A stretch of 57,430 bases of DNA from Candidatus Limnocylindrales bacterium (lineage in GTDB: Bacteria; Chloroflexota; Limnocylindria; Limnocylindrales; CSP1-4). Shown one piece after another: positions 23,556 to 57,326 of the stretch. How positions within the stretch are numbered: the stretch's first letter is position 1; each line of letters starts with the position of its first letter. The notes under the pieces were generated by a model. It was not told the origin of the DNA, did no database searches, and was given only the letters and a program-made list of their open reading frames with translations. Both the position numbers and the translations under genes were made by a program. The DNA lies in the NCBI GenBank assembly GCA_036393495.1, contig DASWGY010000137.1, positions 1 to 57,430 on the forward strand. Reading direction: 5' to 3'.

Positions 23556-25097
23556 ATGGACCCGGGCCTCGAGCCGATCGCGCGTCGCCGCAAGGAACGG
23601 CGCCCCGGCGGGGGCGTGCCGCAACTGCCCTGGCGGCGGCTCGTCAATCCCTTTCGGCCGGTCGAGATCCTGTCAGCCGAGCAGCTCGAAGCGATCCATC
23701 GGGCGTCGCTGCGGATCCTCACGGAGGTCGGCCTCCAGATCCTCGGCGATCGCGCGATCGACCTCCTGGCCGCCGCTGGCGCGACTGTCGATCGCGCAGA
23801 GCGGCGCGTCCGCCTCGAGCCCGGGTTCGTGGAGGAGCGGATCGGGACGGCGCCATCGACCTTCACGCTCCACGCTCGCAACCCGGCTCGCTCGATCGAG
23901 ATCGGAGGGCCGAATCTCGCCTTCACCTCGGTCGGCGGACCTGCCTTCGTCACCGACCTCGACCGCGGCCGGCGGCCCGGCAACGCCGCCGACCTCCGTG
24001 ACTACGTCCGCCTGATCGGCGCCCTCGACGTCATCCACCAGGAGGCCGGCGGGCCACTCGAGGCCACCGACCTGCCCGTGGAGACACGACACCTCGACCT
24101 CTACGAGCTCCTGGCGACGACCCTCGACAAGACCTGGCAATGCGTCGGCTTCGGCCGGACCCCGGTCGACGACGCGATCGAGGTTGCCTGCCTGGCCCGG
24201 GCCGTCGACCGCTCGACCCTCGTCGAACAGCCGAGCGTCATGACGATCATCAACTCGAACTCGCCGCTCCGCCTCGACGGGCCGATGTCGGACGGCCTCA
24301 TCGAGATGGCCGCCAATGGCCAGGCCGTCGTCGCGACGCCCTTCACGCTGGCGGGGGCGATGAGCCCGGCAACGATCGCCGGGGCTCTCGCCGAGCAGAA
24401 CGCCGAAGCCCTGTTCATGGTCGTCCTCACCCAGCTGGCCCGGCCCGGCGCGCCGGTCGTGTACGGCGGCTTCACCTCCAACGTCGACATGCGGACCGGC
24501 TCGCCGGCCTTCGGCACGCCTGAGTACGTGAAGGCGGCCTTCGCCACCGGCCAGCTCGCCCGACGCTACGGCCTGCCGTTCCGGTCGTCGAACGTGACCG
24601 GCTCGAACGCTGTCGACGCCCAGGCGGCCTACGAATCCGAGATGGCCGTGTGGGGTGCGGTCATGGGCGGGGTGAACCTGCTCTACCAGGGCGCCGGCTG
24701 GCTCGAGGGCGGGCTCACCGCTTCGTACGAGAAACTTATCCTCGACGCCGAGATCCTCCAGATGATCGGCGAGATCCTCCAACCGCTCGAGGTCAACGAC
24801 GCGGAGCTGGGGGTCGAGGCGATCGCGAGCGTCGGGCCGGGCGGGCACTTCTTCGGGACCCCCCACACCCTCGAGCGCTTCGAGCATGCCTTCTACCAGC
24901 CGATGCTCAGCGACTGGCGGAACTTCGAGACGTGGCAGGACTCCGGCGCCGAGACCGCAGCGGTGCGGGCGAACCGGATCTGGAAGCAGCTCCTGGCCGA
25001 GTTCGAGCCGCCGCCCCTGGCGATCGACCGCGCCGAAGCGATTGAGGATTTCGTGGCTCGCCGGAAGCGCGAGATCGGGGCGGTGCGCTCGCCGTGA
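23556..25097 (+). CDS. MttB-superfamily (trimethylamine methyltransferase-like) protein, non-pyrrolysine type
   Basis: Full-length similarity to the family (ILSAEQLEAIHRASLRILTEVG, NSNSPLRLD, ATPFTLAGAMSPAT, GGFTSNVDMRTGSPAFGTPE, GGHFFGTPHTLE). The ORF is uninterrupted with no in-frame TAG. TATCGT lies 8 nt before the ATG. Confidence 0.85.
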   Translation: MDPGLEPIARRRKERRPGGGVPQLPWRRLVNPFRPVEILSAEQLEAIHRASLRILTEVGLQILGDRAIDLLAAAGATVDRAERRVRLEPGFVEERIGTAPSTFTLHARNPARSIEIGGPNLAFTSVGGPAFVTDLDRGRRPGNAADLRDYVRLIGALDVIHQEAGGPLEATDLPVETRHLDLYELLATTLDKTWQCVGFGRTPVDDAIEVACLARAVDRSTLVEQPSVMTIINSNSPLRLDGPMSDGLIEMAANGQAVVATPFTLAGAMSPATIAGALAEQNAEALFMVVLTQLARPGAPVVYGGFTSNVDMRTGSPAFGTPEYVKAAFATGQLARRYGLPFRSSNVTGSNAVDAQAAYESEMAVWGAVMGGVNLLYQGAGWLEGGLTASYEKLILDAEILQMIGEILQPLEVNDAELGVEAIASVGPGGHFFGTPHTLERFEHAFYQPMLSDWRNFETWQDSGAETAAVRANRIWKQLLAEFEPPPLAIDRAEAIEDFVARRKREIGAVRSP

Positions 25098-25417: not shown

Positions 25418-26716
25418 TCACCCCCGCCCGCGCAGCCGGCGGAACCGCTCCGGCCGGAAGGGCGAGATGTCGACGCTCGTGGGCCGGCCTTCGAGGATCT
25501 CAGCGACGAGCCGTGCCGTGATGGCGGCCAGGGTCAGGCCGACATGCCCGTGGCCGAAGGCAAGGACGACGTTCGGCGCCCTCGGGGCCCGGCCGATTAC
25601 AGGCAGCGAATCCGGCATCGATGGCCGGAAGCCGATCCATTGGCTGGCGCCGCCGGCGTCGAGCTCCGGAAAGACGGTCTGCGCGGCTGCGACGAGCTTC
25701 TCCGCCCGCCGGAAGTTCGGGGCGGCGCCGATCCCCGCGAGCTCATCCGTGCCAGCCAGCCGGAGGCCTCCGTCCAGCGCCGGGGTCAGCGCGAAGTGAT
25801 AGTCCCCGGACAGGATCGGTGTCCGCAGGGAGATCCCCGGACGGGGCAGCTCGACTCCATAGCCGCGCTCCGTGTCGAGCGGGACTGGTGCCCCGACCTG
25901 GCGGGCGAGGGGACCGGACCAAGCCCCCGCGGCGACCACGACGTTCGTCGCCCGAATGGCGCCCGCACTCGTCCGAACCTCACTCGTGACGCCGTCCTCC
26001 GCGACCAGGTCCCTGACATCGGCCCGGGCCACCGTCCCGCCAGCGGCGGTCAGGCGCTCTGCCAAGGCGGCCGTGAACGCGGCCGGATCAGGTGTGTACC
26101 GCGAGGCTGGGATGAGGATCCCGCGGTGGAACCTGCCGGCGAGCTGCGGGTCAAGGCTTCCGATGCCTGCGTCGTCGAGGATCTCGAGGCCGATGCCGCG
26201 CCGGCGCCGCAGCTCGAGCGCCAATGCGTCCCTGTCGAACGACGCCTCGGTCCGGTAGGCATATAGGAGCCCGCCGCCCGATGCGAGGGCCGCGGGACCG
26301 TCCGGCAGGAACCGCTCCCAGGCCTCCATCGCCGGCCCCACCAGCGTGCCCAGCGTCGACGAGATCGACTCGACCCGCGACGGCCGGCTGGCCAGGACGA
26401 ACCGCAGCAGCCACGGGGCCAGCCTCGGCAGGTACGTCCACCGGATCGCCAGCGGTGAGAGCGGGTCGAGGAGCATGTGCGGGACGGAACGGATAACGCC
26501 CGGTGTCGCCGTCGGCACGACGCCGGCAACCGACATGACTCCGGCGTTGCGACCCGACGCCCCGGTCCCGGGCACCGCGCGGTCGAGCACGATGACGTCT
26601 CGGCCGGCCTCGCGAAGCGCCAGCGAGGTGCACAGGCCGACCGCTCCGGCGCCGATGACGACGACATCAGCCGTCGCGGGGAGACCCCCGGTGCTGCCGT
26701 TCGCGCTGGCCGACAA
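25418..26716 (-). CDS. FAD-dependent oxidoreductase (DAO family: D-amino-acid / sarcosine-oxidase-beta-like)
   Basis: DVVVIGAGAVGLCTSLALREAGRDVIVLD dinucleotide fold and the C-terminal GHGHVGLTLAAITARLVAE. I prefer TTG at 26716 (GGAGG 7 nt upstream) over the track start 26884, which would overlap the divergent gene. Confidence 0.8.
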   Translation of the reverse strand: MSASANGSTGGLPATADVVVIGAGAVGLCTSLALREAGRDVIVLDRAVPGTGASGRNAGVMSVAGVVPTATPGVIRSVPHMLLDPLSPLAIRWTYLPRLAPWLLRFVLASRPSRVESISSTLGTLVGPAMEAWERFLPDGPAALASGGGLLYAYRTEASFDRDALALELRRRRGIGLEILDDAGIGSLDPQLAGRFHRGILIPASRYTPDPAAFTAALAERLTAAGGTVARADVRDLVAEDGVTSEVRTSAGAIRATNVVVAAGAWSGPLARQVGAPVPLDTERGYGVELPRPGISLRTPILSGDYHFALTPALDGGLRLAGTDELAGIGAAPNFRRAEKLVAAAQTVFPELDAGGASQWIGFRPSMPDSLPVIGRAPRAPNVVLAFGHGHVGLTLAAITARLVAEILEGRPTSVDISPFRPERFRRLRGRG

Positions 26717-26763
26717 TCCGACGCCTCCGCACTGCCCGCCTGGTTGCGACGGGTTATGACAGA

Positions 26764-26780
26764 GTACGATATCGTGATAC
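26764..26780. promoter_or_regulatory. GATATC-core motif; perfect 10-bp palindrome ACGATATCGT between divergent FAD-oxidoreductase and metallophosphoesterase genes
   Basis: GTACGATATCGTGATAC. It reads TATCGT on both strands. Confidence 0.6.
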
Positions 26781-26831
26781 GACACTGACGGGTGCCCGGC
26801 CACGGGCGGCGCGACCACGGAGGGACGAGCG

Positions 26832-27527
26832 ATGGTGCTGACCGAGCTCTTGATACCCGAGGATGCCATCGGCGGCGTCACCACGGTCGGGGCCCGACGG
26901 ATCGGTTTCCTGGGCGACGATCACAACGTCGAACAGGATGGCAGCGACCTCCCGGCCGAGGTCTTCGAGGCCTTCGCCGGGGTCGACCTCATCGTCCACC
27001 TCGGCCACATGGGCGTCCGCGACCAGCTGGCTCGCGGCGTCCTCGACCGCCTCGCCGGCCACGCGCCCATCCTGGCCGTTCGGGACGTCTCGACCGACCT
27101 CCAGGGTCAGCCGTACGTGACACCGGCGGAGGGTGATCGTGTCCGGGGGCTGACCCGGATCATCGAGGCCGGTGGTCTCCGGATCGGTGCCGTCCACAAC
27201 CTCGAGCGGCCGCCCGGGCCACCCATTCCGGCGCCGGCCGGCGGCATCCCGGCCTTCGCAGGCCTGGACGTCCGGGCAGTGCTCGAATCGAAGTTCGGGG
27301 GACCGGTCGATGTCGTGGCCTATGCCGGCACGCACCGACCGGTGGCGGTCAACGCCGGCGGCGTCCTGTTCGTCAACCCCGGCAGCCCGACCTGGCCGAA
27401 GGGCCCTGGTCGGGTAGCCGCCGAGCGGTCCCTCGGCACGGTCGGCATTCTGGAGGTCGGGGCGGGCGTCGCCTCGTTCGAGATCGTGGACCTCGGTCAC
27501 CTTGCCGCCGCGGCCGGCCGCGCGTGA
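26832..27527 (+). CDS. Metallophosphoesterase-fold protein (YfcE-like), motifs partly divergent
   Basis: RIGFLGDDHN, DLIVHLGH, AGTHRPV and VNPGSP line up with metallophosphoesterase motifs I-V but with substitutions. GGAGGG SD. Confidence 0.55.
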   Translation: MVLTELLIPEDAIGGVTTVGARRIGFLGDDHNVEQDGSDLPAEVFEAFAGVDLIVHLGHMGVRDQLARGVLDRLAGHAPILAVRDVSTDLQGQPYVTPAEGDRVRGLTRIIEAGGLRIGAVHNLERPPGPPIPAPAGGIPAFAGLDVRAVLESKFGGPVDVVAYAGTHRPVAVNAGGVLFVNPGSPTWPKGPGRVAAERSLGTVGILEVGAGVASFEIVDLGHLAAAAGRA

Positions 27528-28054
27528 GCGAGCTCGACGAGCTCCGTCTCGAGGTTCGCCGGCTGGCCGACCGGGAGTCCATTCGCGACGTCTTCACCCG
27601 GTTCGCTGCCGCCATGGACGGCCAGGATTGGGACCTCCTGGCGACCGTGTTCGCGGATGACGCCGTCTTCGATCACTCGGTCGAAGGCTGGAACGGGCAC
27701 GAATCGGCAGTCTGGACCGGGCAGTCCCGGATCCGGGCGGAAGTGGAAGCAGGCGCCGGGCGCCACTTCGCCTCGCACCACGTCATCACGAATCACCGGA
27801 TCGAGCTCGACGGCGATCGGGCCCGCGTCGTGGCCTACCTTCACTCGGTGCATCTGGACGACCCGCTCCGTCCCGACGTCCACGCCGATCACGGTGCCTG
27901 GTACCTGGCGGCGCTCGTTCGGCGCGCGGCCGGCTGGCGGATCTCGTGGCTGACCCACAAGAGTCTCTGGGCCGACCACGAGTACCAGCCTCCAGGTCCG
28001 GTGACGGATGCGGACCGACGGGCGATGCGGGAGCACGTCGCTCGCTCCACCTGA
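27524..28054 (+). CDS. SnoaL-like / NTF2-fold protein
   Basis: LADRESIRDVFTRFAAAMDGQDWDLLATVFADDAVFDHS is a typical SnoaL_4-type N-terminus. The GTG start overlaps the upstream stop (GTGA). Confidence 0.65.
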   Translation: MSELDELRLEVRRLADRESIRDVFTRFAAAMDGQDWDLLATVFADDAVFDHSVEGWNGHESAVWTGQSRIRAEVEAGAGRHFASHHVITNHRIELDGDRARVVAYLHSVHLDDPLRPDVHADHGAWYLAALVRRAAGWRISWLTHKSLWADHEYQPPGPVTDADRRAMREHVARST

Positions 28055-28102
28055 CCATCGCGCATCCGGCGGCCCGGCCGCTGGACAGGGGCCAGGCCAG
28101 GC

Positions 28103-29194
28103 TCAGTGGTCGCCGACGGTCGCGCCCTCCGGCCAATCGACCCCGACCGACCGTCCGAGCTCTCGTATGGCCTCGACTTTCGCTAGCGGGATCGGGATTC
28201 CATCCAGGCGTCGTCGTTCGGCAGTCTCGGCGCTTCGCTCGCCGGGGACGAACACTCGCGCTACACCCGGCGCGGGTGGCGAGGCATGGACCTGGTCGAT
28301 CAGATGCCTCACCCGGCTCTCGAAGGTCTCGATCGGCATCGAGATCCGCGGGTCGATCGCGATCAGGAAGAGGCTGACGCCCTGGGGCGTACCGCTGTCC
28401 ATCGGCTGGCCGACGTTCGGTGCGAAGAGCTCGCCGCCCGCAATAACGCCGGTCAGGACCTCGAGCATCAGGGCCAGGCCGTAGCCGCGGTGACCGCCCG
28501 CCGGGACCAGGAGTCCCGTCAGCCACGCCGCGGGATCGCGCGTCGGCCGGCCGCCAGCGTCGAACAGGACGCCCTCCGGCAGGAGCTCACCGCGCTCTCG
28601 AAGGGTGTCCATCTCGCCCGTCGACATGAGGGTCGTCGCCGAGTCGAAGACGAGCGGTGCGTAGGGTCCGGCCGAGCAGGCAATGGCGTGGGCCTGGTTG
28701 CCGAGGACGCGCCGCGTGCCGCCCCACGGCGCGGTGAGCGCCGGCCCGTTGGTGACGGCGAGGCCGATCATCCGGGCCTCCGCGGCGAGCCACGCGTAGT
28801 GGCCCATGGCCGCGGCCGAGCTGACATTGCAGATCGAGACCACACCGATCCCCGACTCGCGAGCTAGACCGATCGCGTGGCGCATGCCTCGACTCGCGGC
28901 GACCTGGCCCCAGCCCGTGTCGCCATCGAAGGCGGCGACGGCCGCGCGACTCCCGAGCGGGACCAGTCGGGCCCTTGGATCGGTTCCGCCAGCGCGAATC
29001 CGGGCAACACACTGGGGAAGCTTCGTACCGACGCCATGTGCCTCCAGGCCGCGGAGATCGGCCCATGCCATGGCGTCCGCAGCGAGCGACGCATCCTCCG
29101 CCGTCATGCCGACGGCCTCGAGGATGGCTGCGGCAAAGGCCCGCAGCGGCACGGCCTGGACCAGGATGGTCGACGGCGCGGCGGAGGCCATCAT
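28103..29194 (-). CDS. Ldh_2-family (malate/L-lactate/ureidoglycolate/Pyr2C-reductase type) protein, paralog 1 (last gene of operon)
   Basis: LRGLEAHGVG, LGNQAHAIA, FDSATTLMS, GGHRGYGLALMLEVLTGV and HASPPAPGVARVFVPGER are collinear with E. coli AllD-type proteins. The ATG at 29194 overlaps the upstream stop (ATGA). Confidence 0.85.
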   Translation of the reverse strand: MMASAAPSTILVQAVPLRAFAAAILEAVGMTAEDASLAADAMAWADLRGLEAHGVGTKLPQCVARIRAGGTDPRARLVPLGSRAAVAAFDGDTGWGQVAASRGMRHAIGLARESGIGVVSICNVSSAAAMGHYAWLAAEARMIGLAVTNGPALTAPWGGTRRVLGNQAHAIACSAGPYAPLVFDSATTLMSTGEMDTLRERGELLPEGVLFDAGGRPTRDPAAWLTGLLVPAGGHRGYGLALMLEVLTGVIAGGELFAPNVGQPMDSGTPQGVSLFLIAIDPRISMPIETFESRVRHLIDQVHASPPAPGVARVFVPGERSAETAERRRLDGIPIPLAKVEAIRELGRSVGVDWPEGATVGDH

Positions 29195-30096
29195 CCGGGG
29201 CCCGTCGCCTCGCCGTCGACCTGCGGCGAGGAGCTGGCGGCCGAGGCCTTCCAGGATCGCCACAGGGCGAGACGCTCGTCTGCTCGGAGGAGGCCGCAGG
29301 TGCGGCAGTACGCCTGGCGCCCAGGTACGACGTAGTTGATGCAGCAGATCCGGCGGACCTGGAGCGGACGCGGAAAGTCCGGGTCGTCGACGGTCTCCCA
29401 GGTGAGCAGGTCGAGCATCGGGTTGGGGCCGGGATGACCGGGCAGCCGTGGGCCAAAGAGGATGGCATCTCGATCCTCCGCCTGGGCGGCCTGTCGCGCC
29501 TGGTCGGGATCGTCGACCCCGTTCTCGTACAGCATGTCGATCTGCTCGGCGGCGGTCGACCAGAGGAGCTTCATCGAGACATGGGCCGTGGCGAGGATGC
29601 GCTCGAATGCCGGCGCGAGGTTGTCCCTGACCAGGCTCGTGAGGGCCTGGTCGCGCAGGACCCAGGCCGAGCCCGTGTCCTGCCCACCGAGGGGCCACCG
29701 AGTCGGCCGGTCGCCGGAGACGGCGACGGCGTCCGAATCCATCGACAGGACGACGCCCATCGGCATCTCGGTCCGGATCACGAAGGCGAGGCGGTCGAGC
29801 TGAACGTCCACCGCGACCCCGTGGGCGAGGGGAATGAGCGCCGCCGCGGCCACGGACCCGCAGTAGCGCCGGGCAAATCGTGACGCCGCTGCCCGGACGT
29901 CCTCGTCCTGCGGCCGGGCCGTCCACTCCAGAATGGCGCGGTTGAAGAAGTCGGGCAGACGGGCAGCCGACAGGAGCTCCTGGGCCGGCACGACTTCGCG
30001 GCCGGCCGGCGGTGCAAGGAAGATCGGGTAGGCGGCGCCGAACGGGCCGAACCGCCCGACTGCCTCGTCGATTGCGAGCTGGAGGTCCGCGGTCAT
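29191..30096 (-). CDS. FhuF-like (2Fe-2S)-binding protein (ferric-siderophore-reductase fold)
   Basis: C-terminal RICCINYVVPGRQAYCRTCGL gives C-C-x11-C-x2-C, like the FhuF C-terminal cluster motif. ATGA overlaps occur at both ends (30093-30096 and 29191-29194). Confidence 0.55.
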   Translation of the reverse strand: MTADLQLAIDEAVGRFGPFGAAYPIFLAPPAGREVVPAQELLSAARLPDFFNRAILEWTARPQDEDVRAAASRFARRYCGSVAAAALIPLAHGVAVDVQLDRLAFVIRTEMPMGVVLSMDSDAVAVSGDRPTRWPLGGQDTGSAWVLRDQALTSLVRDNLAPAFERILATAHVSMKLLWSTAAEQIDMLYENGVDDPDQARQAAQAEDRDAILFGPRLPGHPGPNPMLDLLTWETVDDPDFPRPLQVRRICCINYVVPGRQAYCRTCGLLRADERLALWRSWKASAASSSPQVDGEATGPG

Positions 30097-31166
30097 CGGT
30101 CGGGAAAGGACACGCCGAGTTCGGCGCCAAGCTTGGCCATGGCCGTCGCCTGGGGTGCCGGAATGGGGATGCCACCACGCTCGAACTCGACCGCGATCGA
30201 GTCTTTCCGCTCGCCGGGGACGCGAACCCTGGTCACGCCGGGTGCCGGCGGCGAGGCATGAACCTCGTCGATGAGCCGGTCGACCCTGGCCCGGAACTCG
30301 TCCGGTGGGAGGAAGCTGGCGGGGTCGAGCGCGAGCAGGAAGAGGCTGAGGCCCATCGCCTGGTCGAGGTGGTCCATGCCCACGATCTGGGTCGTCGTGC
30401 GGCCGCCGGACAGGACGCCGGTCAAGACTTCCCACAGGATGGCCAGGCCACCGCCCCGATGCCCGCCCATCGGCAGCAGCAGCAGGGTGTCCAGCGCTTC
30501 GGCAGCGTCGGTTGTCTCTCGTCCGTCGCGACCCAGGGCGACGCCCGGTGGGATCGGCTCGCCCCGCTCGCGGGCGGCCCGCATCAGGCCCATCGAGTAG
30601 GCGCTCGTCGACGAATCGAAGATGAGTGGCGGATGGTGGCCGGCGGGGGCACCGATGGCGAAGGCCTGGTTGCCGAGGAGCCGCTGCGAGCTGCCCCAGG
30701 GCGGCATGAGCGGAACCGAGTTCGTGATCGCCAGGCCGACGAGGCCCTCGCGGACCGCGAGCGCCGGGTAGTAGCCCATCGCGGCAGTCACATCACTGTC
30801 GCGAACGACGACGACACCGATCCCGACGGCCCGGGCCTTGTCGATCGCGAGTCGCATTCCACGACCACCGGCGACCGGCCCCCACCCGCCGGCGGCATCG
30901 AGAGAAGCCGTGGCCGCGGTTTCTCTGACCGGGGTCCAGTCGGCGTGGAGGGCGAGGCCGCCCCCGCGGGACCGTGCGGCGATCTGGAGCAGGCGGTTGG
31001 AGCCCGTCCCAAATGCCCCCCGAAGGTCGGAGTAGACCATCGCGTCGGCAGCGATCGCGGCGTCGTCGGCGGGCATTCCGAGGGCCTCGAGGACTGCCTC
31101 CGCGAAGGCCCGCAGGTCCGCAGCCAGGATGCGCCCCGGCGATGGGCGCGTCGTGGCCGGGCTCAC
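30093..31166 (-). CDS. Ldh_2-family protein, paralog 2
   Basis: LRGAFGTGSNRL, LGNQAFAIGAP, GGHRGGGLAILWEVLTGV, HASPPAPGVTRVRVPGER. The GTG at 31166 overlaps the upstream stop (GTGA). Confidence 0.8.
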   Translation of the reverse strand: MSPATTRPSPGRILAADLRAFAEAVLEALGMPADDAAIAADAMVYSDLRGAFGTGSNRLLQIAARSRGGGLALHADWTPVRETAATASLDAAGGWGPVAGGRGMRLAIDKARAVGIGVVVVRDSDVTAAMGYYPALAVREGLVGLAITNSVPLMPPWGSSQRLLGNQAFAIGAPAGHHPPLIFDSSTSAYSMGLMRAARERGEPIPPGVALGRDGRETTDAAEALDTLLLLPMGGHRGGGLAILWEVLTGVLSGGRTTTQIVGMDHLDQAMGLSLFLLALDPASFLPPDEFRARVDRLIDEVHASPPAPGVTRVRVPGERKDSIAVEFERGGIPIPAPQATAMAKLGAELGVSFPDR

Positions 31167-32266
31167 CAGGCCACCCCCAGCTCGGCCCCGAGCGACCGAA
31201 GCCGGGCGCTGAGCTCGGGCACAACCGGGACGCCTGTCCGCTCGCGCTCCGCTGCTAACGCGGCGGCCCGTTCGCCGGGGACGAGAACGGCCTGTACGCC
31301 GGCCATCGGAGGCGAGGCGTGAATCTGATCCACGAGGGTGTCGACGCGGGCCAGGAACCGCTCCCGCGGCAGCCAGGCCGATGGATCGAGCGCGAGCATG
31401 AAGTGGCTGACCGATTGGGATCGCGCGAGGTCGGCGATCGGAGTGATTTCGGATCCGAACCGGGCACCCCCAGACAAGACGCCGGTCAGGACAGCCCACA
31501 TCAACGACAACCCGAAGCCGCGATGACCGCCGATCGGCAGCAGGATTCCCGCGAGCGCCGCCGCGGGATCGATCGTTGGCGTGCCGGAGGCGTCAAGGGC
31601 GAGGCCCGCTGTCAGCGGCTCGCCACGGGCGATCAGGGCCTCGATGCCCGTCCAGGAGATGGCCGTCGTGGCTGAGTCGAAGATCACCGTCGGGCACCGG
31701 GCCGCCGGCGCCGCGATCGCGAAGGCCTGGTTGCCGAGGACGCGGGTTGTTCCGCCGTGAGGTGCCTGGAGGGGCGTCGTGTCGTTGATCGCCAGGCCGA
31801 CGAGGCCTTCGTCGGCGGCGAGGCTCGCGTACCAGCCCATGGCCGAGCCTGACGTGGTGTCCCGGACGACGACGATCCCCGCCCCCGTCGCGCGGGCCTT
31901 GACGATCGCAAGCCGCATCGCCCGCGTGCCTGCCACTTGGCCCCAGGCGCCCGCGGCGTTCAGGACGGCCGCAGCCGGCGTTTCGGCGACGACCCGGATT
32001 GCCGGAGCGGCCGGCGTTCCGCCGGCCCGGATCCGACCGACGAGGAGTGGCAGCTTGGCGATACCCTGGGCCGTGATCCCGCGGAGGTCGGCCCAGGCAA
32101 AGGCCGCGCCGACAGTCACCGCGTCGTCCTCCGGCATTCCGAGACGCTCGAGGACGGCGGCCACGAACGCCCGCAGACGGGCGGCGTCGATCAGCTCGTT
32201 CGGCTCGCTCACCCGGCGTTTGTCGGTACCCGTCCCAGACCGGTGTGCCGGCAGATCCTCGATCAT
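31163..32266 (-). CDS. Ldh_2-family protein, paralog 3
   Basis: LRGITAQGIAKL, LGNQAFAIAAP, GGHRGFGLSLMWAVLTGV, HASPPMAGVQAVLVPGER. ATG at 32266; GTG at 32212 is an alternative start. Confidence 0.8.
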   Translation of the reverse strand: MIEDLPAHRSGTGTDKRRVSEPNELIDAARLRAFVAAVLERLGMPEDDAVTVGAAFAWADLRGITAQGIAKLPLLVGRIRAGGTPAAPAIRVVAETPAAAVLNAAGAWGQVAGTRAMRLAIVKARATGAGIVVVRDTTSGSAMGWYASLAADEGLVGLAINDTTPLQAPHGGTTRVLGNQAFAIAAPAARCPTVIFDSATTAISWTGIEALIARGEPLTAGLALDASGTPTIDPAAALAGILLPIGGHRGFGLSLMWAVLTGVLSGGARFGSEITPIADLARSQSVSHFMLALDPSAWLPRERFLARVDTLVDQIHASPPMAGVQAVLVPGERAAALAAERERTGVPVVPELSARLRSLGAELGVAW

Positions 32267-32297
32267 GCCCGGCGCCCCCGACCCGAGCCCCGCCCGC

Positions 32298-33332
32298 TCA
32301 CAGCGTCAGCCCGAGGTCGGCGCCGATAGCCGTGAGACGCTCGTGAAGGGCGGCCCGGATCGGGATCCCGTCGCGCGCACGCTCGCGGGCGAGCGCGAAG
32401 CCTCGCTCGCCGGGCACCGTCACGCGCTCGACGCCAGGAGCCGGCGGCGAGGCGTGGATCTCGTCGATAAGCCGGTCGACTCGAGCTAGGAACTCTCCGA
32501 GGGGCTGGGCGAACTCAGGGTCGATGGCCATCAGGAACATGCTCACGGCCTGTGGCCGGTCGAGCTCGTCCGGCCCGGAGACCGCCGGGCCGTACCGCTC
32601 GCCACCCGCGAGGACGCCGGTGAGGACCTCCCACATGACCGCCAGTCCCGAGCCCCGGTGCCCGCCCATGGACCGAAGGATGCCGCTGAGCGCAACGTCA
32701 GGGTCGATGGTCGGCTGCCCGTCGGCGTCGAGCGCAACGTCCGGGGGGAGGGGTTCGCCACGGTCGCGGTACTCGTGGATTCGGGCGAGCGTGATCGCGG
32801 TCGTCGCCATGTCGAGCAGCAGTGGGTCATGGCGGCGGGCGGGGCAGGCGATGGCGAAGGCCTGGTTGCCGATGACCTTGGTCGTCCCTCCCCAAGGTGC
32901 CTGGAGCGGGGGCGAGTTGTTGATCGCCAGGCCGACCATCTTCTGGTCGGCGGCGAGGAGGGCGAAGTAGCCGAGCGGCCCTGCCGAGGTCGTGTTCCGG
33001 ACTGCTGCGACTCCGACGCCCGCCGAACGAGCCTGCCCGATGGCGTGACGCATCGCCCGGGCTCCGGCAATCTGGCCCCAGGTGTCGGCGGCGTCCAGCA
33101 CCGCGGTGGCATCCCGTTCGAGGACCTTCGTTCGCGCGCTTGTCGGGCTCGTCACGCCGGCCCGCAGGCGGCCCAGGTACTGCGGGATCTTCGCAACGCC
33201 AAGGGCACTGATCCCGCGGAGGTCGGACCACACGAGGACGTCGGTCAGCGCGGCCGCGTCGGCCCGGCTCATATCGGCCCGCTGGAAGACGGCCTCGGTA
33301 AAGGCTCGAAGGCGTTCGACCGGGACGCGCAT
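32298..33332 (-). CDS. Ldh_2-family protein, paralog 4
   Basis: LRGISALGVAKI, IGNQAFAIACP, GGHRGSGLAVMWEVLTGV, HASPPAPGVERVTVPGER. ATG at 33332 gives a family-typical N-terminus. The in-frame GTG at 33461 would overlap the upstream stop (GTGA) and add a 43-aa low-complexity extension. Confidence 0.8.
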   Translation of the reverse strand: MRVPVERLRAFTEAVFQRADMSRADAAALTDVLVWSDLRGISALGVAKIPQYLGRLRAGVTSPTSARTKVLERDATAVLDAADTWGQIAGARAMRHAIGQARSAGVGVAAVRNTTSAGPLGYFALLAADQKMVGLAINNSPPLQAPWGGTTKVIGNQAFAIACPARRHDPLLLDMATTAITLARIHEYRDRGEPLPPDVALDADGQPTIDPDVALSGILRSMGGHRGSGLAVMWEVLTGVLAGGERYGPAVSGPDELDRPQAVSMFLMAIDPEFAQPLGEFLARVDRLIDEIHASPPAPGVERVTVPGERGFALARERARDGIPIRAALHERLTAIGADLGLTL

Positions 33333-33457
33333 GGCCGGCGCGGCCGGGGCGCTCGTGCCTTCTTGTGTTCCGGCGCGACCAGCTCGCTCCGCGCCGGGCG
33401 AGCCCGGATCGCTGGTCGGCGTCGTTCCGCCGGGCGGGGCCGCGCCGCGCGCTCGAG

Positions 33458-34192
33458 TCACGCGGGTGTCCCGAAGGCCGTCCCCACGACCGCCTCGTGG
33501 GTCGCGATGACGAGCGTCGTGAGATCGAACACCGGCCGGCCCAGCGCCCGGCGAATGGCTGGCGCGTAGGGCGGAAAGTTCGTGCACTCGAGGACGAAGG
33601 CCCCGACGTCGGGGCTGCGGTCGACCACCCGAGCAGCGAGCGATACGAGCTCCGCCTCCAGGACCTCCCCGTCGGCCTCGGCACGACCCTCGAGGTACGT
33701 CTGGGCGAAGGTCGACTCCGGGGCCATGCCGCCGACCACGATGCGGAGGTCGCTCGACCTGAACCCGACGCCCTCGAATTGGGCTTCGGTCAGGTGAGGC
33801 TCGCTCATGGTGAGGATCCCGACGCTCCGATCGGGCCCGATCATCCGCGCCACGAGCGGGACCTGAAGGAGGGATGAGGACAGTACCGGTACGCTCACGG
33901 CGGCGGCCAGCTGTGGCTGAAACTGCGCGAGGAAGCCACAGCTCGTTGTGATCATCGGCACGCCCTCCTGCTCGAGCTCCCGGGCCGCGTCAACGAACTG
34001 GTCCCGGAGGGCGGAATCCGGGCGCTTTACGACGTATCCCGACGTCGCCCCGGGGACCACCCGGAAGCGAACCGGGAAGGGCCACGTGGCGGCATTGCCG
34101 ACGTCGCCGACGGGCCGCGGGAAGATCGTGTCGAGCATCAGGACCCCGAGCTCGTAGCCGTAGACGGTCCGACCGCCGGCGAGCGTCTGCAT
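33458..34192 (-). CDS. Asp/Glu/hydantoin-racemase-fold protein (two-cysteine type), copy 1
   Basis: ITTSCGFLAQFQ and VLECTNFPPY are the two conserved Cys positions of two-base racemases and isomerases. The start lies 5 nt after the AcnX small-subunit stop. Confidence 0.7.
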   Translation of the reverse strand: MQTLAGGRTVYGYELGVLMLDTIFPRPVGDVGNAATWPFPVRFRVVPGATSGYVVKRPDSALRDQFVDAARELEQEGVPMITTSCGFLAQFQPQLAAAVSVPVLSSSLLQVPLVARMIGPDRSVGILTMSEPHLTEAQFEGVGFRSSDLRIVVGGMAPESTFAQTYLEGRAEADGEVLEAELVSLAARVVDRSPDVGAFVLECTNFPPYAPAIRRALGRPVFDLTTLVIATHEAVVGTAFGTPA

Positions 34193-34197
34193 TCCGA

Positions 34198-34620
34198 TCA
34201 GGCGCCGCGGTGGACGGTGACGAGCCCGGTCTGGCCGTCGACCGTCACCTCGTCCCCGGTGTGGATCTCGGTCACGATGTCTGCGTCGGGCTGACAAACG
34301 ATCGGAACGCCGCCGAGGATCGCGCCCTGGACCAGCGAGGAATCGGGAAGGGCGACCTGGACGATCGCCACCGGGTTCGTCCCATGGACCACGAGCTGGT
34401 ACAGGAATCGCCACGCGCCAGCCGATCCGACCGTGTGGGGCAGCACGAGCACCCGCCCACCGACACTCTCGCCCGCCAGGGGATGCGTCCGATTGACGAT
34501 CTCGCCGGTCTTGATGTCGATGTCGCCGAGGAACGAGATTCCCTCGCTCGAGACGAGCGCCGGGCCCCGCGCCGTACCACGGACGATGCCGCGCCCGCGG
34601 ATCGGCCGGCTCGCGATCAC
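34198..34620 (-). CDS. Aconitase X swivel-domain small subunit (DUF126)
   Basis: GRGIVRGTARGPALVSSEGISFLGDIDIKTGEIV...GESVGGRVLVLPHTVGSAGAWRFLYQLVVHGTNPVAIV is a typical DUF126 sequence. The GTG at 34620 overlaps the large-subunit stop (GTGA). Confidence 0.8.
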   Translation of the reverse strand: MIASRPIRGRGIVRGTARGPALVSSEGISFLGDIDIKTGEIVNRTHPLAGESVGGRVLVLPHTVGSAGAWRFLYQLVVHGTNPVAIVQVALPDSSLVQGAILGGVPIVCQPDADIVTEIHTGDEVTVDGQTGLVTVHRGA

Positions 34621-35897
34621 CGTCCCGCTCGGGCCGGCACGAAACGGGCGGTGACCGCCGATTCGACGGCGCCTGCGGCGCTCGACAGGAGAGCTGCACA
34701 GCCGATCATGTCGCGGACATACTTCGCCTGTTTCGGCGAATCCACGACCATCGCCCGAATCGGCGGCGGCACGAGCTCCACCGATGGATCCGGGGAGGTG
34801 GTGCGAGCGAAGTGGCACGACATCGGGCAGGTATCGGTGATGATCCGGGCGCCCGAATCGGTGATGACTCGGGCCGTTCCGTCCTGCTCGGCGACGCTCC
34901 GGACGGCACGGCTCGTGGTGACCCACATTTCGACCCCGGGATGGACTCTGCGGCCCTCCAGGAGGCCGGCGTAGAGGCGCATCTCCTCACCTGATGCGTG
35001 GGGACAGCCGAGGTGGACGAAATCGACGGCCTCGCCCTCGGCCGGACCGCCAAAGGCCGCGTAGACGGCATCGATCTCGGGATCGCCGACGAGCAGCTCC
35101 TCGGTCGCCCGGCGTCCACGGAACGCGGCCGCCTCGTCAGCATAGGGAGGCGTCACGCCGGGGACGATGAACATCGAGACCCCGCCGGTCGTCGCCAGGC
35201 CGGCGCCGAGCGCGTCGAGCTCGTCGAGGCTCGGGCGACGACCCTCCAGGCCCAGGAATACCGGAACACCGGTTCCGACGATCTTTCCGACGTGATAGCC
35301 AAGGCAGCCGTAGTCGGTGATCGTCTCGAGACGCGCCTCGACTCGGACCCGGTGCGTCCCGACTCGGTTCTCGTCGAGGTGATAGCCGAAGCGCGGATAG
35401 CGGCCGGCGATCGCGGCATAGACCGAGAAGAAGCCATCCCGGTTGGAGCGGGCACCGAGGACCGAGTTGCAGAAGACGGTGACCCCGGATTCGATCGAGG
35501 TCATGTGGGTGTTCCAGGTGGGCCAGTAGCCCGCCCAGTAGGGCGTGCAGGTCATGGCACTGACGCAACCCAGATCGCCATGGGCCTTGACCCCCCGGAG
35601 GTGAATCCGGGCGAGGGCCTCCGGCGCCCCCGTATCCCGCCAGTGATCGGTGTCGACGTTGGTGACGTTCGCCGTGGTCGGGACGGACACCTTCGCCCCC
35701 AGGGACACGAGATCCTCGAGGAGCTCAACGTCCTGGGCATACATCGCCATCCCGGGGTGGACATGCGCGTAACCGATCGCGACCATGTCCTCGGCCCCGA
35801 ACGCGTCCCCGAGCTGGACGAGACCGGACATCGCCCGCTGCAGGGCTTCGCCCCGGTCCCCGTCCAGCATCGCCCGTTCGTCGTCGGTCAGCCGCAT
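34617..35897 (-). CDS. Aconitase X catalytic large subunit (DUF521)
   Basis: MRLTDDERAMLDGDRGEALQRAMSGLVQLGDAFGAEDMVAIGYAHV is a typical DUF521 N-terminus, with conserved Cys-containing blocks (FCNSVLGARSN, HLGCPH, TDTCPM). Confidence 0.85.
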   Translation of the reverse strand: MRLTDDERAMLDGDRGEALQRAMSGLVQLGDAFGAEDMVAIGYAHVHPGMAMYAQDVELLEDLVSLGAKVSVPTTANVTNVDTDHWRDTGAPEALARIHLRGVKAHGDLGCVSAMTCTPYWAGYWPTWNTHMTSIESGVTVFCNSVLGARSNRDGFFSVYAAIAGRYPRFGYHLDENRVGTHRVRVEARLETITDYGCLGYHVGKIVGTGVPVFLGLEGRRPSLDELDALGAGLATTGGVSMFIVPGVTPPYADEAAAFRGRRATEELLVGDPEIDAVYAAFGGPAEGEAVDFVHLGCPHASGEEMRLYAGLLEGRRVHPGVEMWVTTSRAVRSVAEQDGTARVITDSGARIITDTCPMSCHFARTTSPDPSVELVPPPIRAMVVDSPKQAKYVRDMIGCAALLSSAAGAVESAVTARFVPARAGR

Positions 35898-35971
35898 CGA
35901 GACGCCTCCGGACCTCCAGGCATCGCGCCGGCCGGCCGTCGGTCCGGCGGACGCCGCGAAGAGTCACGTCG

Positions 35972-35991
35972 CGATATCGTACACCGTTATC
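35972..35991. promoter_or_regulatory. GATATC-core motif pair (GATATC, then GTTATC 13 bp later) between the AcnX operon and the divergent racemase-like gene
   Basis: CGATATCGTACACCGTTATC. Confidence 0.55.
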
Positions 35992-36044
35992 AAAGCCCCT
36001 CTGGCCGGCACCGCCTCGGGTCGAGCCAGGAGCTGGAGGACCAG

Positions 36045-36782
36045 ATGAGCCGACCGCTGCTCGGGGGCCGTACCACCTACGGGCAGGACCTCGGTATCCT
36101 CATGCTCGACACCCGATTCGAACGGCTCCGGGGCGATGTCGGGAACGCGTCCACGTGGCCGTTCCCGGTCCGTTACAAGGTCGTGACCGGCGCGACCTCG
36201 TCCCGGATCATGGGCCGCGAGCCCGACCCCGATCTCATCGCACCGTTCGTGGCCGCGGCCCGCGAGCTCGACGCGGACGGCGTCACGGCGATCACGACGA
36301 GCTGTGGCTTTCTGGCCGCCTTCCAGCCCGAGCTGGCCGCCGCGGTGACAGTACCGGTCGTGACGTCGGCCCTCCTCCAGGTGCCGCTCGCGGCCCGGAT
36401 GATCGGACCGGACCGGCGGGTGGGCATCCTCACTGAGCGCCCGAACCTCACGGAGGCCCATTTCCGGGCCCTCGGCTGGTCCTCGACGGAGGTTCCGGTC
36501 GTCATCCGAGCGTTGCCCGACGAGGCCGTCTTCCCCACCATCTTCATCGACGGATCCGGCCGTCGCGTCGAGCCGAACCTCCTCGAGGCCGAGCTCGTCA
36601 GCGCCGCAGCGGCCCTGATCGCCGACGCCCCTGACGTTGGGGCGATCGTCCTCGAATGCACGAACTTCGTGCCCTTCTCTGCGGCCATGCGACGAGCGAC
36701 CGGACGGGCCGTTTTCGATCTGTACACCCTCGTCGCCGGGGTCAGTGCCGCCAGCCGGGAGACGGCTGTACGAGGCGGCTGA
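36045..36782 (+). CDS. Asp/Glu/hydantoin-racemase-fold protein (two-cysteine type), copy 2
   Basis: Clear paralog of 33458-34192 (GDVGNASTWPFPVRYKVV, ITTSCGFLAAFQP, LLQVPLAARMIGPDRRVGILT, VLECTNFVPF). GGAGGA SD. It is divergent from the AcnX operon. Confidence 0.7.
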   Translation: MSRPLLGGRTTYGQDLGILMLDTRFERLRGDVGNASTWPFPVRYKVVTGATSSRIMGREPDPDLIAPFVAAARELDADGVTAITTSCGFLAAFQPELAAAVTVPVVTSALLQVPLAARMIGPDRRVGILTERPNLTEAHFRALGWSSTEVPVVIRALPDEAVFPTIFIDGSGRRVEPNLLEAELVSAAAALIADAPDVGAIVLECTNFVPFSAAMRRATGRAVFDLYTLVAGVSAASRETAVRGG

Positions 36783-38197: not shown

Positions 38198-38219
38198 GAC
38201 GGATCCTGATATCGCATCC
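38198..38219. promoter_or_regulatory. GATATC / GTTATC motif pair between the PrpD-like gene and dapL
   Basis: GATATCGCATCCCGATGTTATC, with a hexamer offset of 16 bp. Confidence 0.5.
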
Positions 38220-38296
38220 CGATGTTATCATCGCCCGATCGTGGCTCAGTGGCGGCAGAATGCGTTCGCACCCACCCCGGACAGGAGGCCGATCGA

Positions 38297-39502
38297 ATGA
38301 ACGACCCCCGCGCAGAGCGGCTCCGAAGGCTGCCGCCGTATCTCTACATGGAGATCCGACGAAAGACCCGCGAGGCCCAGGCGCGAGGAATCGACGTGAT
38401 CAGCCTGGGCGTCGGCGACCCGGATCGGCCGACGCCCGATCACATCATCAGCGCCCTCGTCGAGGCGGCCGGGAAACCAGAGAACCACCGCTACCCTACC
38501 GATGAGGAGAAGGGTATGCGGGCCTTCCGGGAGTCGGTCGCCGGGTGGTACGGGCGCCGGTTCGGCGTCGACCTCGATCCCGACGGCGAGGTCGTCGCCC
38601 TCATCGGCAGCAAGGAAGGCAACCACCACCTGGCGCTCGCCGTGCTCGACCCGGGTGATGTCGCGATCATCCCCGACCCGGGCTACCCGGCCTACCTCGC
38701 AAGCGCGATCTTCGCCGGCGCCGAGGTGGTCCGGGTCCCCCTGCGGCCCGAGAACGACTTCGTCCTGGACATCAACGACCTTGGCGACGAGCTCGGCCGC
38801 CGGGCCCGGTTGTTGTGGCTCAGCTACCCGAACAACCCAACGACCGCGGTCGTCGACGTGCCGTTCTTCGAGCGCGTTGTTGCCTGGGCCCGCCGCAACG
38901 ATGTCGTCGTCGTCAACGACAACCCGTACTCCGAGATCGCCTTCGACGGTGTCCGGATCCCGAGCATCCTCGAGGCGGACGGGGCCCGGGACGTGGCCAT
39001 CGAATTCAACAGCCTGTCGAAGCCGTACAACATGACCGGCTGGCGGATCGGGATGGCGGTGGGCAATCGCGAGCTGGTCGGGGCCATCGCCCAGGTCAAG
39101 GAGAATACCGACAGCGGCGTCTTCAACGCCGTCCAGTACGCCGGCATCGCCGCCCTCGATGGTCCCCAGGACGCGATCGCGGCGAATCTCGAGGTGTACC
39201 GCCGTCGGCGCGACCTCGTCGTGGACACGCTCCGATCCGTTGGCCTGGCGCTCGATCGGCCGAAAGCCACGTTCTACGTCTGGGCCCCGATCCCGCCGGG
39301 CCTTGGCAGCATCGAGTATGCCGGCCGGCTGCTCGATCTCACGGGTGTCGTGGTGACGCCGGGGATCGGCTATGGGCAAATGGGCGAGGGGTATGTGCGT
39401 CTCTCACTGTCCGTCCCGGACGCCCGCCTCGCCGAGGCGATGGACCGGCTGAGCTCCGCTCGTCACGAGCTGGCCGCGCTCCCGGCGACGGCAGCCGGGT
39501 AG
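38297..39502 (+). CDS. dapL: LL-diaminopimelate aminotransferase (DapL-type class I aminotransferase)
   Basis: LPPYLYMEI, ISLGVGDPDRPTP, LIGSKEGNHHL, YPNNPT, and NSLSKPYNMTGWRIGMAVGN (the PLP lysine block). AGGAGG SD. It is followed by dapF. Confidence 0.75.
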   Translation: MNDPRAERLRRLPPYLYMEIRRKTREAQARGIDVISLGVGDPDRPTPDHIISALVEAAGKPENHRYPTDEEKGMRAFRESVAGWYGRRFGVDLDPDGEVVALIGSKEGNHHLALAVLDPGDVAIIPDPGYPAYLASAIFAGAEVVRVPLRPENDFVLDINDLGDELGRRARLLWLSYPNNPTTAVVDVPFFERVVAWARRNDVVVVNDNPYSEIAFDGVRIPSILEADGARDVAIEFNSLSKPYNMTGWRIGMAVGNRELVGAIAQVKENTDSGVFNAVQYAGIAALDGPQDAIAANLEVYRRRRDLVVDTLRSVGLALDRPKATFYVWAPIPPGLGSIEYAGRLLDLTGVVVTPGIGYGQMGEGYVRLSLSVPDARLAEAMDRLSSARHELAALPATAAG

Positions 39503-39509
39503 CCGCAGC

Positions 39510-40328
39510 GTGGCCCACTTCATCAAGTCCCACGGGCTCGGCAACGACTACCTCGTCATCGATCCCCGGGACCTTCCAGTCGAGCTGACGCCGGAGGCGA
39601 CGCGCCGGATCTGCGATCGCAATCGGGGCGTCGGCTCCGATGGCATCCTCCTCGTCGCCCCCTCCACTGCCGCTGACTTCGGGGTCCGGATCCTCAATCC
39701 CGATGGCAGCGAGGCCGAGAAGAGCGGCAACGGCGTCCGGATCTTCGCCAAGTTCCTGCGCGACCATGGCTACTCCGATCGCGATCGGTTCGTGATCGAG
39801 ACTCCCGGCGGCCTCGTGGCGGTCGAGCTCCACCGCCGCGACGGGCGCGTCGCCGAAGTCCTGGCCGAGATGGGCCGCGCTCGGTTCGACGACCTTGACG
39901 CCATCGATGTCGACGGTGGGCGGCTTGACGTCACCTCGGTGTCGGTCGGCAACCCCCATTGCGTCGTCGTCGTGCCCGACCTCGGCGCCGTCGATGTCCG
40001 GGGGCTCGGACCCAAGATCGAATCCCACCCCGCCTTTCCAAACCGGACCAACGTCCAGTTCGTCCAGGTCGTCACAAGGAGCGAGGTCCGCGCCGAGATC
40101 TGGGAGCGGGGAGCCGGCTACACCCTCGCCTCCGGCTCCAGCGCCTGCGCCGTCGCGGCGGCGTGCCATCGCCTCGGGCTCGTCGACCGGGAGGTCGCCG
40201 TGACGATGCCCGGGGGGCAGCTCCAGATCGCGATCGGCGAGGACGGGATGCTGCGGATGCTGGGACCCGTGGAGGAGGTCTGTAGCGGTGACCTCAGCGA
40301 GGAGCTCCTGGCGTCGTTGCGGGGCTGA
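39510..40328 (+). CDS. dapF: Diaminopimelate epimerase
   Basis: SHGLGNDYLVID, GSDGILLV, GNPHCVVVV and ERGAGYTLASGSSACAV include both catalytic Cys blocks. GTG start. Confidence 0.9.
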   Translation: MAHFIKSHGLGNDYLVIDPRDLPVELTPEATRRICDRNRGVGSDGILLVAPSTAADFGVRILNPDGSEAEKSGNGVRIFAKFLRDHGYSDRDRFVIETPGGLVAVELHRRDGRVAEVLAEMGRARFDDLDAIDVDGGRLDVTSVSVGNPHCVVVVPDLGAVDVRGLGPKIESHPAFPNRTNVQFVQVVTRSEVRAEIWERGAGYTLASGSSACAVAAACHRLGLVDREVAVTMPGGQLQIAIGEDGMLRMLGPVEEVCSGDLSEELLASLRG

Positions 40329-42834: not shown

Positions 42835-42888
42835 CTGGGCACCTCGCTCGGACGCGGCTGCGGTCGGGCGCTTGGCGGCATGATGTCG

Positions 42889-42906
42889 GATATCGATATC
42901 GTATAC
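42889..42906. promoter_or_regulatory. Tandem GATATC-GATATC motif between the Mo-oxidoreductase and MFS genes
   Basis: GATATCGATATCGTATAC. Confidence 0.55.
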
Positions 42907-42986
42907 CCTTCTCGAGCGTCCTCCCCGAGGCGCGGTGCTACGGTGCTGGCCGCGCTGCCTACGACGCGCTGACGAGGAGTCCGACC

Positions 42987-44231: not shown

Positions 44232-44255
44232 GCGCCGGGATCTTCGGTCAGGTCC

Positions 44256-44582: not shown

Positions 44583-44698
44583 CCGATTTGGCCTCGGATG
44601 GGCGCTGGGATCAGGTGGCATTGGGCAAAGTGTACCGGGCCAGTCCACTGGACGATGCCATGCTCGCCGACGCCCACCGCCGCGCCAGTGGCCCGCCA

Positions 44699-45607: not shown

Positions 45608-45660
45608 CGAGGGCGACCTCCGCGTCCCGTGATGGACCCAGAGGACGATGCTACCATCGC

Positions 45661-45687
45661 ACTGATATCGGGATGTGATATCGCTGG
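45661..45687. promoter_or_regulatory. Double GATATC operator-like element between the LLM oxidoreductase and the hypothetical gene
   Basis: ACTGATATCGGGATGTGATATCGCTGG matches 57327-57353 at 21 of 27 positions. Confidence 0.6.
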
Positions 45688-57320: not shown

Positions 57321-57326
57321 GAGATC

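Follow-up and report, generated by a model that had tools for sequence, protein, structure and literature searches.

Four tandem genes of a divergent Ldh_2 clade beside a split AcnX in a Candidatus Limnocylindrales contig

The Ldh_2 gene run

Four paralogous genes of the Ldh_2 family (PF02615) were studied on contig DASWGY010000137.1 (assembly GCA_036393495.1) of a Candidatus Limnocylindrales bacterium (Chloroflexota). The window, meaning the whole stretch of DNA that was analysed, comprises positions 1 to 57,430 of the forward strand of this contig and has a GC content of about 71%. The four genes belong to a single, tightly packed run on the minus strand, read from 35897 to 28103, in which the large and small subunits of AcnX (AcnXL, AcnXS) and a racemase-like gene (RacA) are followed by Ldh_2 copies 4, 3 and 2, an FhuF-like gene and Ldh_2 copy 1. 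The genes of the run, by ascending coordinate, are:

28103–29194, minus strand: Ldh_2 copy 1 (W1 lineage), PF02615 at 322 bits, with LEAHGVGTKL, GNQA and GGHRG
29191–30096, minus strand: FhuF-like putative 2Fe-2S protein, PF06276 at 4e-11
30093–31166, minus strand: Ldh_2 copy 2 (W2 lineage), PF02615 at 327 bits, GTG start, with GNQA and GGHRG
31163–32266, minus strand: Ldh_2 copy 3 (W3 lineage), PF02615 at 312 bits, with GNQA and GGHRG
32298–33332, minus strand: Ldh_2 copy 4 (W4 lineage), PF02615 at 341 bits, with GNQA and GGHRG
33458–34192, minus strand: RacA, Asp/Glu-racemase-like protein, NF005679 (PRK07475) at 292.7 bits, PF01177
34198–34620, minus strand: AcnX small (swivel) subunit, PF01989
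34617–35897, minus strand: AcnX large subunit, PF04412 at 374 bits

Start and stop codons overlap by four bases between copies 3 and 2 (GTGA), between copy 2 and the FhuF-like gene (ATGA), and between the latter and copy 1 (ATGA). The GC content at third codon positions was of coding type, being 0.83–0.86 in the four Ldh_2 open reading frames (ORFs) and 0.83–0.87 over the five downstream genes (the four Ldh_2 genes and the FhuF-like gene). The start of copy 4 at 33332 was preferred over that at 33461 because the upstream extension has the GC pattern of non-coding DNA. A scan of 27400–36200 found no promoters or terminators on the minus strand.

Family membership and fold

All four ORFs were full-length members of PF02615 (312–341 bits, the cut-off being 38.8, over profile positions of about 1–333), with pairwise identities of 47–49%. 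None passed any of the NCBIfam equivalog cut-offs (AllD, ComC, YiaK/DlgD, PRK10098); the best score was 218 bits against 500, for sulfolactate dehydrogenase, and the AllD model TIGR03175 gave 154–176 bits against 496. Copy 4, the only copy modelled, was predicted with AlphaFold2 (AF2) to have the three-domain Ldh_2 fold, at a predicted local distance difference test score (pLDDT) of 93.8. A Foldseek search with this model returned 27 PDB chains at E≤1e-3. Every one was an Ldh_2 structure, and template modelling (TM) scores reached 0.96; the match to ComC (2x06) had a TM score of 0.94 and a root-mean-square deviation (rmsd) of 1.7 Å.

The closest solved relatives were the (R)-sulfolactate dehydrogenase ComC of M. 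jannaschii (2x06) and the type-2 malate/lactate dehydrogenases of P. horikoshii (1v9n) and T. thermophilus (1vbi), at 164–202 bits and 33–36% identity. The same three were nearest to the copy 4 model by fold (TM 0.94–0.95, rmsd 1.6–1.8 Å). They match the window copies in length and domain order and have the DLRG, Asp174, GG-x-basic-G and APG...PGE blocks in common with them, but they carry SHG (His44), N-x-N-H-x-G (His116), G-T-N-P and GxKG, all of which the window copies lack except for His44 in copy 1. The C-terminal ASPPAPG...VPGE block is a family-wide feature; 1vbi has ATPPAPGHEEVFLPGE.

Active-site residues

For residue mapping, the copies were aligned by HMMER to 1v9n, 2x06, 1vbi and AllD (4h8a) and by MAFFT to the complete AllD sequence. 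AllD numbering is used throughout, and four residues separated by slashes refer to copies 1 to 4 in turn. In AllD the nicotinamide ring lies between His44 and Pro158, the carboxamide is hydrogen-bonded by His116, which was proposed as the catalytic base (the H116A mutant has no activity), the pyrophosphate is neutralised by Lys224, and a ribose is bound by Asp174; His44 and His116 were termed 'invariant in this family' (PMC3527362).

The position of His44 is occupied by H / T / Q / L and that of His116 by S / V / S / S. Neither histidine is found in copies 2–4; copy 1 has His44 only, and itself lacks His116, Pro158 and Lys224. All four copies have N-Q-A for the Thr156-Asn157-Pro158 loop and Arg for Lys224 (GGHRG), the latter a conservative change. 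Position 48, Arg in AllD, remains basic (K / R / K / K), with a one-residue insertion just before the Lys of copy 1; position 52 is Cys in copy 1 and Tyr in copy 4. AllD (4h8a, 4fju) belongs to the same family; Asp174 and Gly306 are kept in every copy, and the AllD-specific Ser140-Asp141 pair is absent.

An earlier reading made from the sequence alone (hereafter the sequence-only reading) had noted that three copies lack the His of the SHG motif, that the His of the '(N/G)HxG' block is lost, and that GGHRG stands in place of GxKG. The alignments bore out each of these, with His44 retained only in copy 1 (28103–29194). A displacement of the histidines by an indel was considered and rejected, since HMMER and MAFFT agreed whether the four solved structures or full-length AllD served as the reference; the histidines are truly substituted. 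The same reading had taken the SHG histidine for the catalytic acid/base. This calls for refinement: in AllD it is His116 that is assigned as the base, with H116A dead, and His44 stacks on the nicotinamide (PMC3527362), so that His116 has the better support as the catalytic residue.

Comparison with canonical family members

A profile of the four copies was searched against 1.84 billion cluster representatives (clusters at 50% identity), giving 18,015 family members, and the best 150 of these 18,015 were compared; they included 13 clusters with the window signature and 136 canonical clusters. His44 was present in 132/136 canonical clusters against 4/13 of the others, His116 in 128/136 against 0/13, Asn157 in 121/136 against 0/13, Pro158 in 131/136 against 0/13, and Lys224 in 135/136 against 2/13. 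Asp174, by comparison, was found in 136/136 canonical clusters and in 12/12 with the window signature (one further cluster being gapped), and Gly306 in 135/136 and 12/13, respectively. Every canonical cluster (136/136) had at least one of the two histidines, and none lacked both. The combination of SHG, G[TS]NP and GxKG was present in 119/120 members of a separate sample of relatives of AllD and of the Pyrococcus malate dehydrogenase (MDH). The earlier contrast of GNQA with G-T-N-P stood in part: N157Q and P158A are genuine replacements, but Asn156 is normal for the family, occurring in 69/136 canonical representatives.

The replacement in W2–W4 of all the AllD contacts to the nicotinamide ring (His44, His116 and Pro158) might mean that hydride transfer from NAD(P)H has been abandoned. 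In such a non-redox repurposing, the old cleft (Asn156, Gln157, Ser116, Lys/Arg48, Arg224) would bind an anionic substrate, and the protein would act as an isomerase, epimerase or tautomerase, by hydrolase-type chemistry, or in electron transfer to Fe-S partners. The loss of activity of AllD through H116A alone speaks for this, as does the presence of at least one histidine in all 136 canonical representatives. On the other side, a literature search found no earlier example of an Ldh_2 protein outside redox chemistry, and the contacts to the rest of the dinucleotide are conserved across the clade (see below). We regard this explanation, the main alternative to the reading preferred here, as a tentative one, with the odds against it.

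Phylogeny and selection

A word-indexed search returned 320 relatives at E<1e-20, mostly metagenomic. GNQA was present in 90 of the best 120 of these 320, and GGHRG in nearly all 120. In a neighbour-joining tree the sequences related to the window copies formed a monophyletic clade of 113 leaves with no canonical sequence inside it. Its signature (His116 absent, Gln157-Ala158, His223-Arg224) extends over about 13 clusters at 50% identity and sets it sharply apart from the canonical family. Members were found in uncultured Acidimicrobiia, Chloroflexota and Streptosporangiaceae. No specific NCBIfam model captures the group, and neither the clade nor its gene cluster was found described in a literature search. 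Judged by alignment and tree, it is a distinct, previously undescribed Ldh_2 clade, which is named here the NQA/HRG clade; the 'divergent Ldh_2 subfamily' that had been proposed from the four copies is confirmed by its monophyly, its coordinated signature and its separation from canonical sequences.

Each window copy fell into a sub-clade of its own (W1, 66 leaves; W2, 7; W3, 20; W4, 18). Because the four sub-clades differ, the tandem array is an assembly of four old paralogous lineages and not a recent amplification.

Ratios of nonsynonymous to synonymous substitution rates (dN/dS) among Acidimicrobiia orthologs were 0.09–0.19 for W4, 0.14–0.24 for W2 and 0.10–0.17 for W1; the W3 lineage gave 0.19. 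Neighbouring genes gave similar values in the Acidimicrobiia orthologs (RacA, 0.13–0.25; AcnXL, 0.04–0.13). The window and a near-identical strain (L023) differed at only 0–5 synonymous sites per gene, too few for dN/dS.

The remodelled pocket positions were among the most conserved columns of each lineage, with entropies of about 0–0.3 bits against column means of 0.9–1.3. In the W1 lineage His44 was present in 65/66 sequences, Lys48 in 64/66, Cys52 in 61/66 and Ser116 in 65/66; in W3, Gln44, Lys48, Ser116 and N-Q-A were each found in 20/20; and in W4, Leu44 was found in 13/18, Tyr52 in 16/18 and Ser116 in 15/18. His44 is still present in some of the seven W2 members. Asp174 was kept in all clade sequences examined, and nearly all of them kept Gly306 of the PGE loop and a basic side chain at position 224. 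This retention is most simply explained by continued binding of a dinucleotide, and it counts against the non-redox explanation given above.

Pseudogenisation was rejected because dN/dS was low and the pocket positions were conserved within each lineage; the range of 0.09–0.24 across all lineages upholds the earlier opinion that these genes are not pseudogenes.

A separate feature of the W1 lineage is that Cys (61/66) takes the place of Tyr52, which hydrogen-bonds His116 in canonical enzymes, and this Cys lies with the retained His44 in the old active site. The lineage also carries the one-residue insertion ahead of Lys48.

Genomic context

The genes flanking the run that recur beside clade members are:

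25418–26884, minus strand: DAO-family FAD oxidoreductase, PF01266 at 213 bits; 54% identity to its homolog in another clade locus
27524–28054, plus strand: SnoaL_4 protein, PF13577
36045–36782, plus strand: RacB, second PRK07475 racemase-like protein, divergently transcribed, NF005679 at 276 bits
36816–38231, minus strand: MmgE/PrpD-family protein (PrpD-like), PF03972
38210–39502, plus strand: DapL-like class I/II aminotransferase, NF006756 at 555 bits against a cut-off of 507

Six distinct Acidimicrobiia-type contigs (loci L001–L006; L007 is the same contig as L002) have one gene order: a leftward aminotransferase gene, a rightward PrpD-like gene, a leftward RacB gene, and then AcnXL, AcnXS, RacA, W4, W2 and W1, all rightward. 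The W3 and FhuF-like genes are additions to this order in the window and in the near-identical strain L023. RacA lies upstream of the Ldh_2 genes in L001–L007, L011, L017, L018 and L024, and the position of RacB is conserved in L001–L007 and L011. The PrpD-like gene is syntenic in L001–L007, L011, L018 and L024; the aminotransferase gene adjoins it in L001–L007 and is in the same operon in L018.

Other arrangements centre on single lineages. AcnXL-AcnXS-Rac-W3 was found in L017 and L018. L008, L021 and L026 have DAO orthologs (51–54% identity) beside genes of W4 or W1 type; the neighbour is a W4-type gene in L008, and the order in L021 is W4-SnoaL_4-DAO; SnoaL_4 adjoins clade members in L018 and L021. 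A W1-type gene is followed by two FhuF-like genes in L018 (3233–5067) and L024 (5205–7039), and by an FhuF-like gene in L023 too. In L026 (5614–9080) a Mo-bisPGD oxidoreductase gene and a W1-type gene share 4 bp, which suggests co-translation and possibly a complex. In L008, L011 and L017 a W3-type or W4-type gene is the lone clade member beside AcnX/Rac or DAO, and L021 has two separate clade genes, each with its own neighbourhood.

These arrangements bear on the suggestion of the sequence-only reading that most copies may be non-catalytic partners. In its full form this would be an obligate hetero-oligomer, in which copy 1, with its His44, would alone be catalytic and copies 2–4 would be structural or regulatory subunits. 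The 4-bp overlaps that join W3, W2, the FhuF-like gene and W1 would suit such a complex, as would the W4-W2-W1 order conserved in the six distinct contigs and the restriction of His44 among the window copies to W1 (65/66 of its clade). Ldh_2 enzymes are, moreover, dimeric, with the adenine end of the cofactor at the subunit interface (PMC3527362). An obligate complex is nonetheless unlikely, because single lineages often occur without the others: W3-type or W4-type genes stand alone in L008, L011 and L017, and the two clade genes of L021 are separated. The His-less lineages are also as constrained as W1 in dN/dS and show no relaxation at the pocket residues, which are invariant. Nor would W1, without His116, Pro158 and Lys224, be a 'normal' catalytic subunit. 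The suggestion of non-catalytic partners was accordingly not supported.

Further window genes with homologs in other clade loci, and genes placed among them, are:

40294–43044: Mo-bisPGD enzyme, 62% identity to its homolog in L026; about 11 kb from the window Ldh_2 genes
45747–46196 (also delimited as 45666–46208): 153-aa protein, 56% identity to its homolog
48697–49998: chromate-transporter-like protein, 62% identity to its homolog
50064–51419: amidohydrolase
51439–52869: amidase
52962–53327 (also delimited as 52908–53333): small transmembrane protein, 41% identity to its homolog
55633–56130: RidA
56127–57389: CCG-domain protein, 36% identity to its homolog

Genes for an MFS transporter, a luciferase-like oxidoreductase and Opp-type ABC proteins likewise recur. 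These recurring genes of window positions 40294–57389, among which the amidohydrolase, amidase and RidA genes are not counted, reappear, shuffled, near clade Ldh_2 genes in L018, L020, L025, L026 and the P0069 contig. Because so many additional window genes have homologs in other clade loci, a larger functional island around the clade genes is suggested.

The recurrence of redox proteins that do not depend on NAD (FhuF-like 2Fe-2S proteins, CCG-domain proteins, the Mo-bisPGD oxidoreductase in L026, and DAO) adds to the case for a non-redox role of the Ldh_2 proteins themselves. Taken furthest, the NQA/HRG clade might be a new class of enzymes with the Ldh_2 fold, working without NAD(P)H hydride transfer, together with Fe-S/Mo partners and AcnX, in an undescribed catabolism of amino- or hydroxy-(poly)carboxylates in uncultured Actinomycetota and Chloroflexota. 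This is put forward as a speculative proposal that we would not expect to hold as a whole.

Two further observations were made on the surroundings. A full-length MttB-family methyltransferase (23556–25097, plus strand, PF06253 at 622 bits) adjoins DAO and is not conserved in related loci; it is a non-pyrrolysine member of its family, since it has no in-frame stop. Genes of lysine/diaminopimelate (DAP) type accompany the cluster, namely the DapL-like aminotransferase and DapF in the window (38210–40328), and DapB and an ornithine (Orn)/DAP (LysA-like) decarboxylase elsewhere (L018, L017, L020).

Neighbouring proteins

The window AcnX is of the split (type II) bacterial form, with 7cnr and 7cnp as the nearest solved structures. 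It keeps the catalytic residues Ser70, Glu292, Ser293, Lys530 and Tyr534 and the Cys ligands. In the small subunit the equivalent of Ser70 of AtAcnX is present, and Trp35, Cys71 and Thr72 are replaced by L, A and G; in the large subunit Asp203 is replaced by H, Ile206 by M and Asn294 by G. The residues that bind cis-3-hydroxy-L-proline (C3LHyp), Trp35, Cys71, Thr72, Asp203 and Ile206, were thus not matched in the window AcnX. Watanabe et al. (2021) flagged the bacterial split subclasses type IIc–f as functionally unknown; these are of the same two-subunit type as the window AcnX, and associated Ldh_2, racemase-like and FhuF-like genes were not described there. Because its C3LHyp landmarks are altered, the window AcnX appears to fall in one of these subclasses.

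The characterised AcnX types I and IIa make delta1-pyrroline-2-carboxylate (Pyr2C), which is reduced to proline, and DpkA of Pseudomonas (1wtj, 2cwh) is an Ldh_2 protein that acts with NADPH on cyclic imine 2-carboxylates. DAO-type enzymes also produce cyclic imines. The window copies could on these grounds be taken for ordinary DpkA-like ketimine reductases of Pyr2C and delta1-piperideine-2-carboxylate (Pip2C) type, finishing the C3LHyp pathway downstream of AcnX, and the genomic logic of DpkA (an imine-producing dehydratase or DAO beside the Ldh_2 gene) does resemble the contexts found here. The AcnX of the window is, however, not of the hydroxyproline type, with Trp35, Cys71, Thr72 and Asp203 changed as given above, and the copies are far closer to ComC and MDH (183–202 bits) than to DpkA (87–95 bits). 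DpkA has both histidines, and its acid-catalyst His is absent from copies 2–4, being present in copy 1. We consider this identification very improbable. The route C3LHyp to Pyr2C to Pro was rejected as stated, the window AcnX being without the C3LHyp landmarks.

RacA and RacB match only the NCBIfam entry PRK07475, a 'hypothetical protein'. Both in the window and in L001–L007, the AcnX genes have RacA on one flank and RacB on the other. The RacA-type and RacB-type paralogs are 53–59% identical across loci. Both proteins contain TSCGF and ECTNF, which are candidate two-Cys racemase motifs as read from the translations.

The FhuF-like protein ends in CC-x11-C-x2-C and scores 56.5 bits with TIGR03951, below the cut-off of 63.85. 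Its gene is translationally coupled between copies 2 and 1, and no siderophore genes are nearby. The closest solved relative of the PrpD-like protein is iminodisuccinate epimerase (2hp0/2hp3, 4e-18). The start of the aminotransferase is uncertain: its ORF shares about 22 bp with the beginning of the divergent PrpD-like gene, and the true start is probably further downstream.

Interpretation

The residues that hold ADP-ribose in AllD (Asp174, the PGE loop and the basic residue at 224) are retained together with the fold, and the corner of the site that serves the nicotinamide and catalysis is remodelled: Ser or Val stands in place of His116 and Gln-Ala in place of Asn157-Pro158, and the residue at 44 depends on the lineage (H, T, Q, L). 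Taken together, these two facts point most simply to a dinucleotide-binding enzyme with non-canonical catalysis. The reading towards which we lean, with some reserve, is that the four genes encode functional members of the NQA/HRG clade which would still be likely to bind a dinucleotide and would catalyse in a non-canonical way. The 'different chemistry' that was the other alternative of the sequence-only reading is plausible on the aligned residues and is the one preferred here. Catalysis might consist of an imine reduction that needs no acid, or might use a Ser116/Tyr52/Lys48 arrangement in W4. The selection and lineage data and the copy 4 model speak against non-catalytic subunits whose pockets have decayed.

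Each copy may be an enzyme that works by itself and binds a ligand, with a substrate or stereoisomer particular to it. We infer that the copies would act on successive or alternative 2-oxo, 2-imino or 2-hydroxy carboxylate intermediates of one catabolic pathway, shared with the split AcnX dehydratase, the PRK07475 racemase-like proteins, the PrpD-like protein, the DAO-type flavoenzyme and the Fe-S partners. The AcnX dehydratase and DAO would yield 2-oxo or 2-imino acids, which are the canonical class of Ldh_2 substrates. To judge from this set of neighbours, the substrate of the pathway is probably a (poly)carboxylate of amino or hydroxy type that has several stereocentres.

Several points weigh against functional, dinucleotide-binding enzymes of this kind. 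The clade is known from sequence and predicted structure alone. Copies 2–4 lack both histidines and the nicotinamide-stacking Pro and so may not be oxidoreductases, one of the two lost histidines having been regarded as a universal catalytic residue. A protein that binds a ligand without catalysis, such as a sensor or a chaperone-like protein, could likewise have a strongly conserved pocket, and the conserved tandem order and translational coupling in Acidimicrobiia would be expected of a hetero-oligomer as well. Finally, the pathway and substrate class are deduced from neighbours whose own function is uncharacterised.

Significance

The Ldh_2 family has been treated as uniformly NAD(P)H-dependent, with catalysis by one of two 'invariant' histidines, and the NQA/HRG clade departs from this in a coordinated way. 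The clade is under purifying selection and of considerable size, with about 13 clusters (50% identity) and hundreds of metagenomic sequences, and its members are annotated generically as 'Ldh family oxidoreductase / malate-lactate-ureidoglycolate dehydrogenase'. Its characterisation would reveal either hydride transfer without the canonical residues or a new chemistry. Through the operon the clade is associated with the PRK07475 family and with one subclass of split AcnX, both functionally uncharacterised, and the identification of a single substrate would annotate the whole recurrent neighbourhood, in Chloroflexota as well as in the abundant uncultured Acidimicrobiia, among them sponge-associated lineages.

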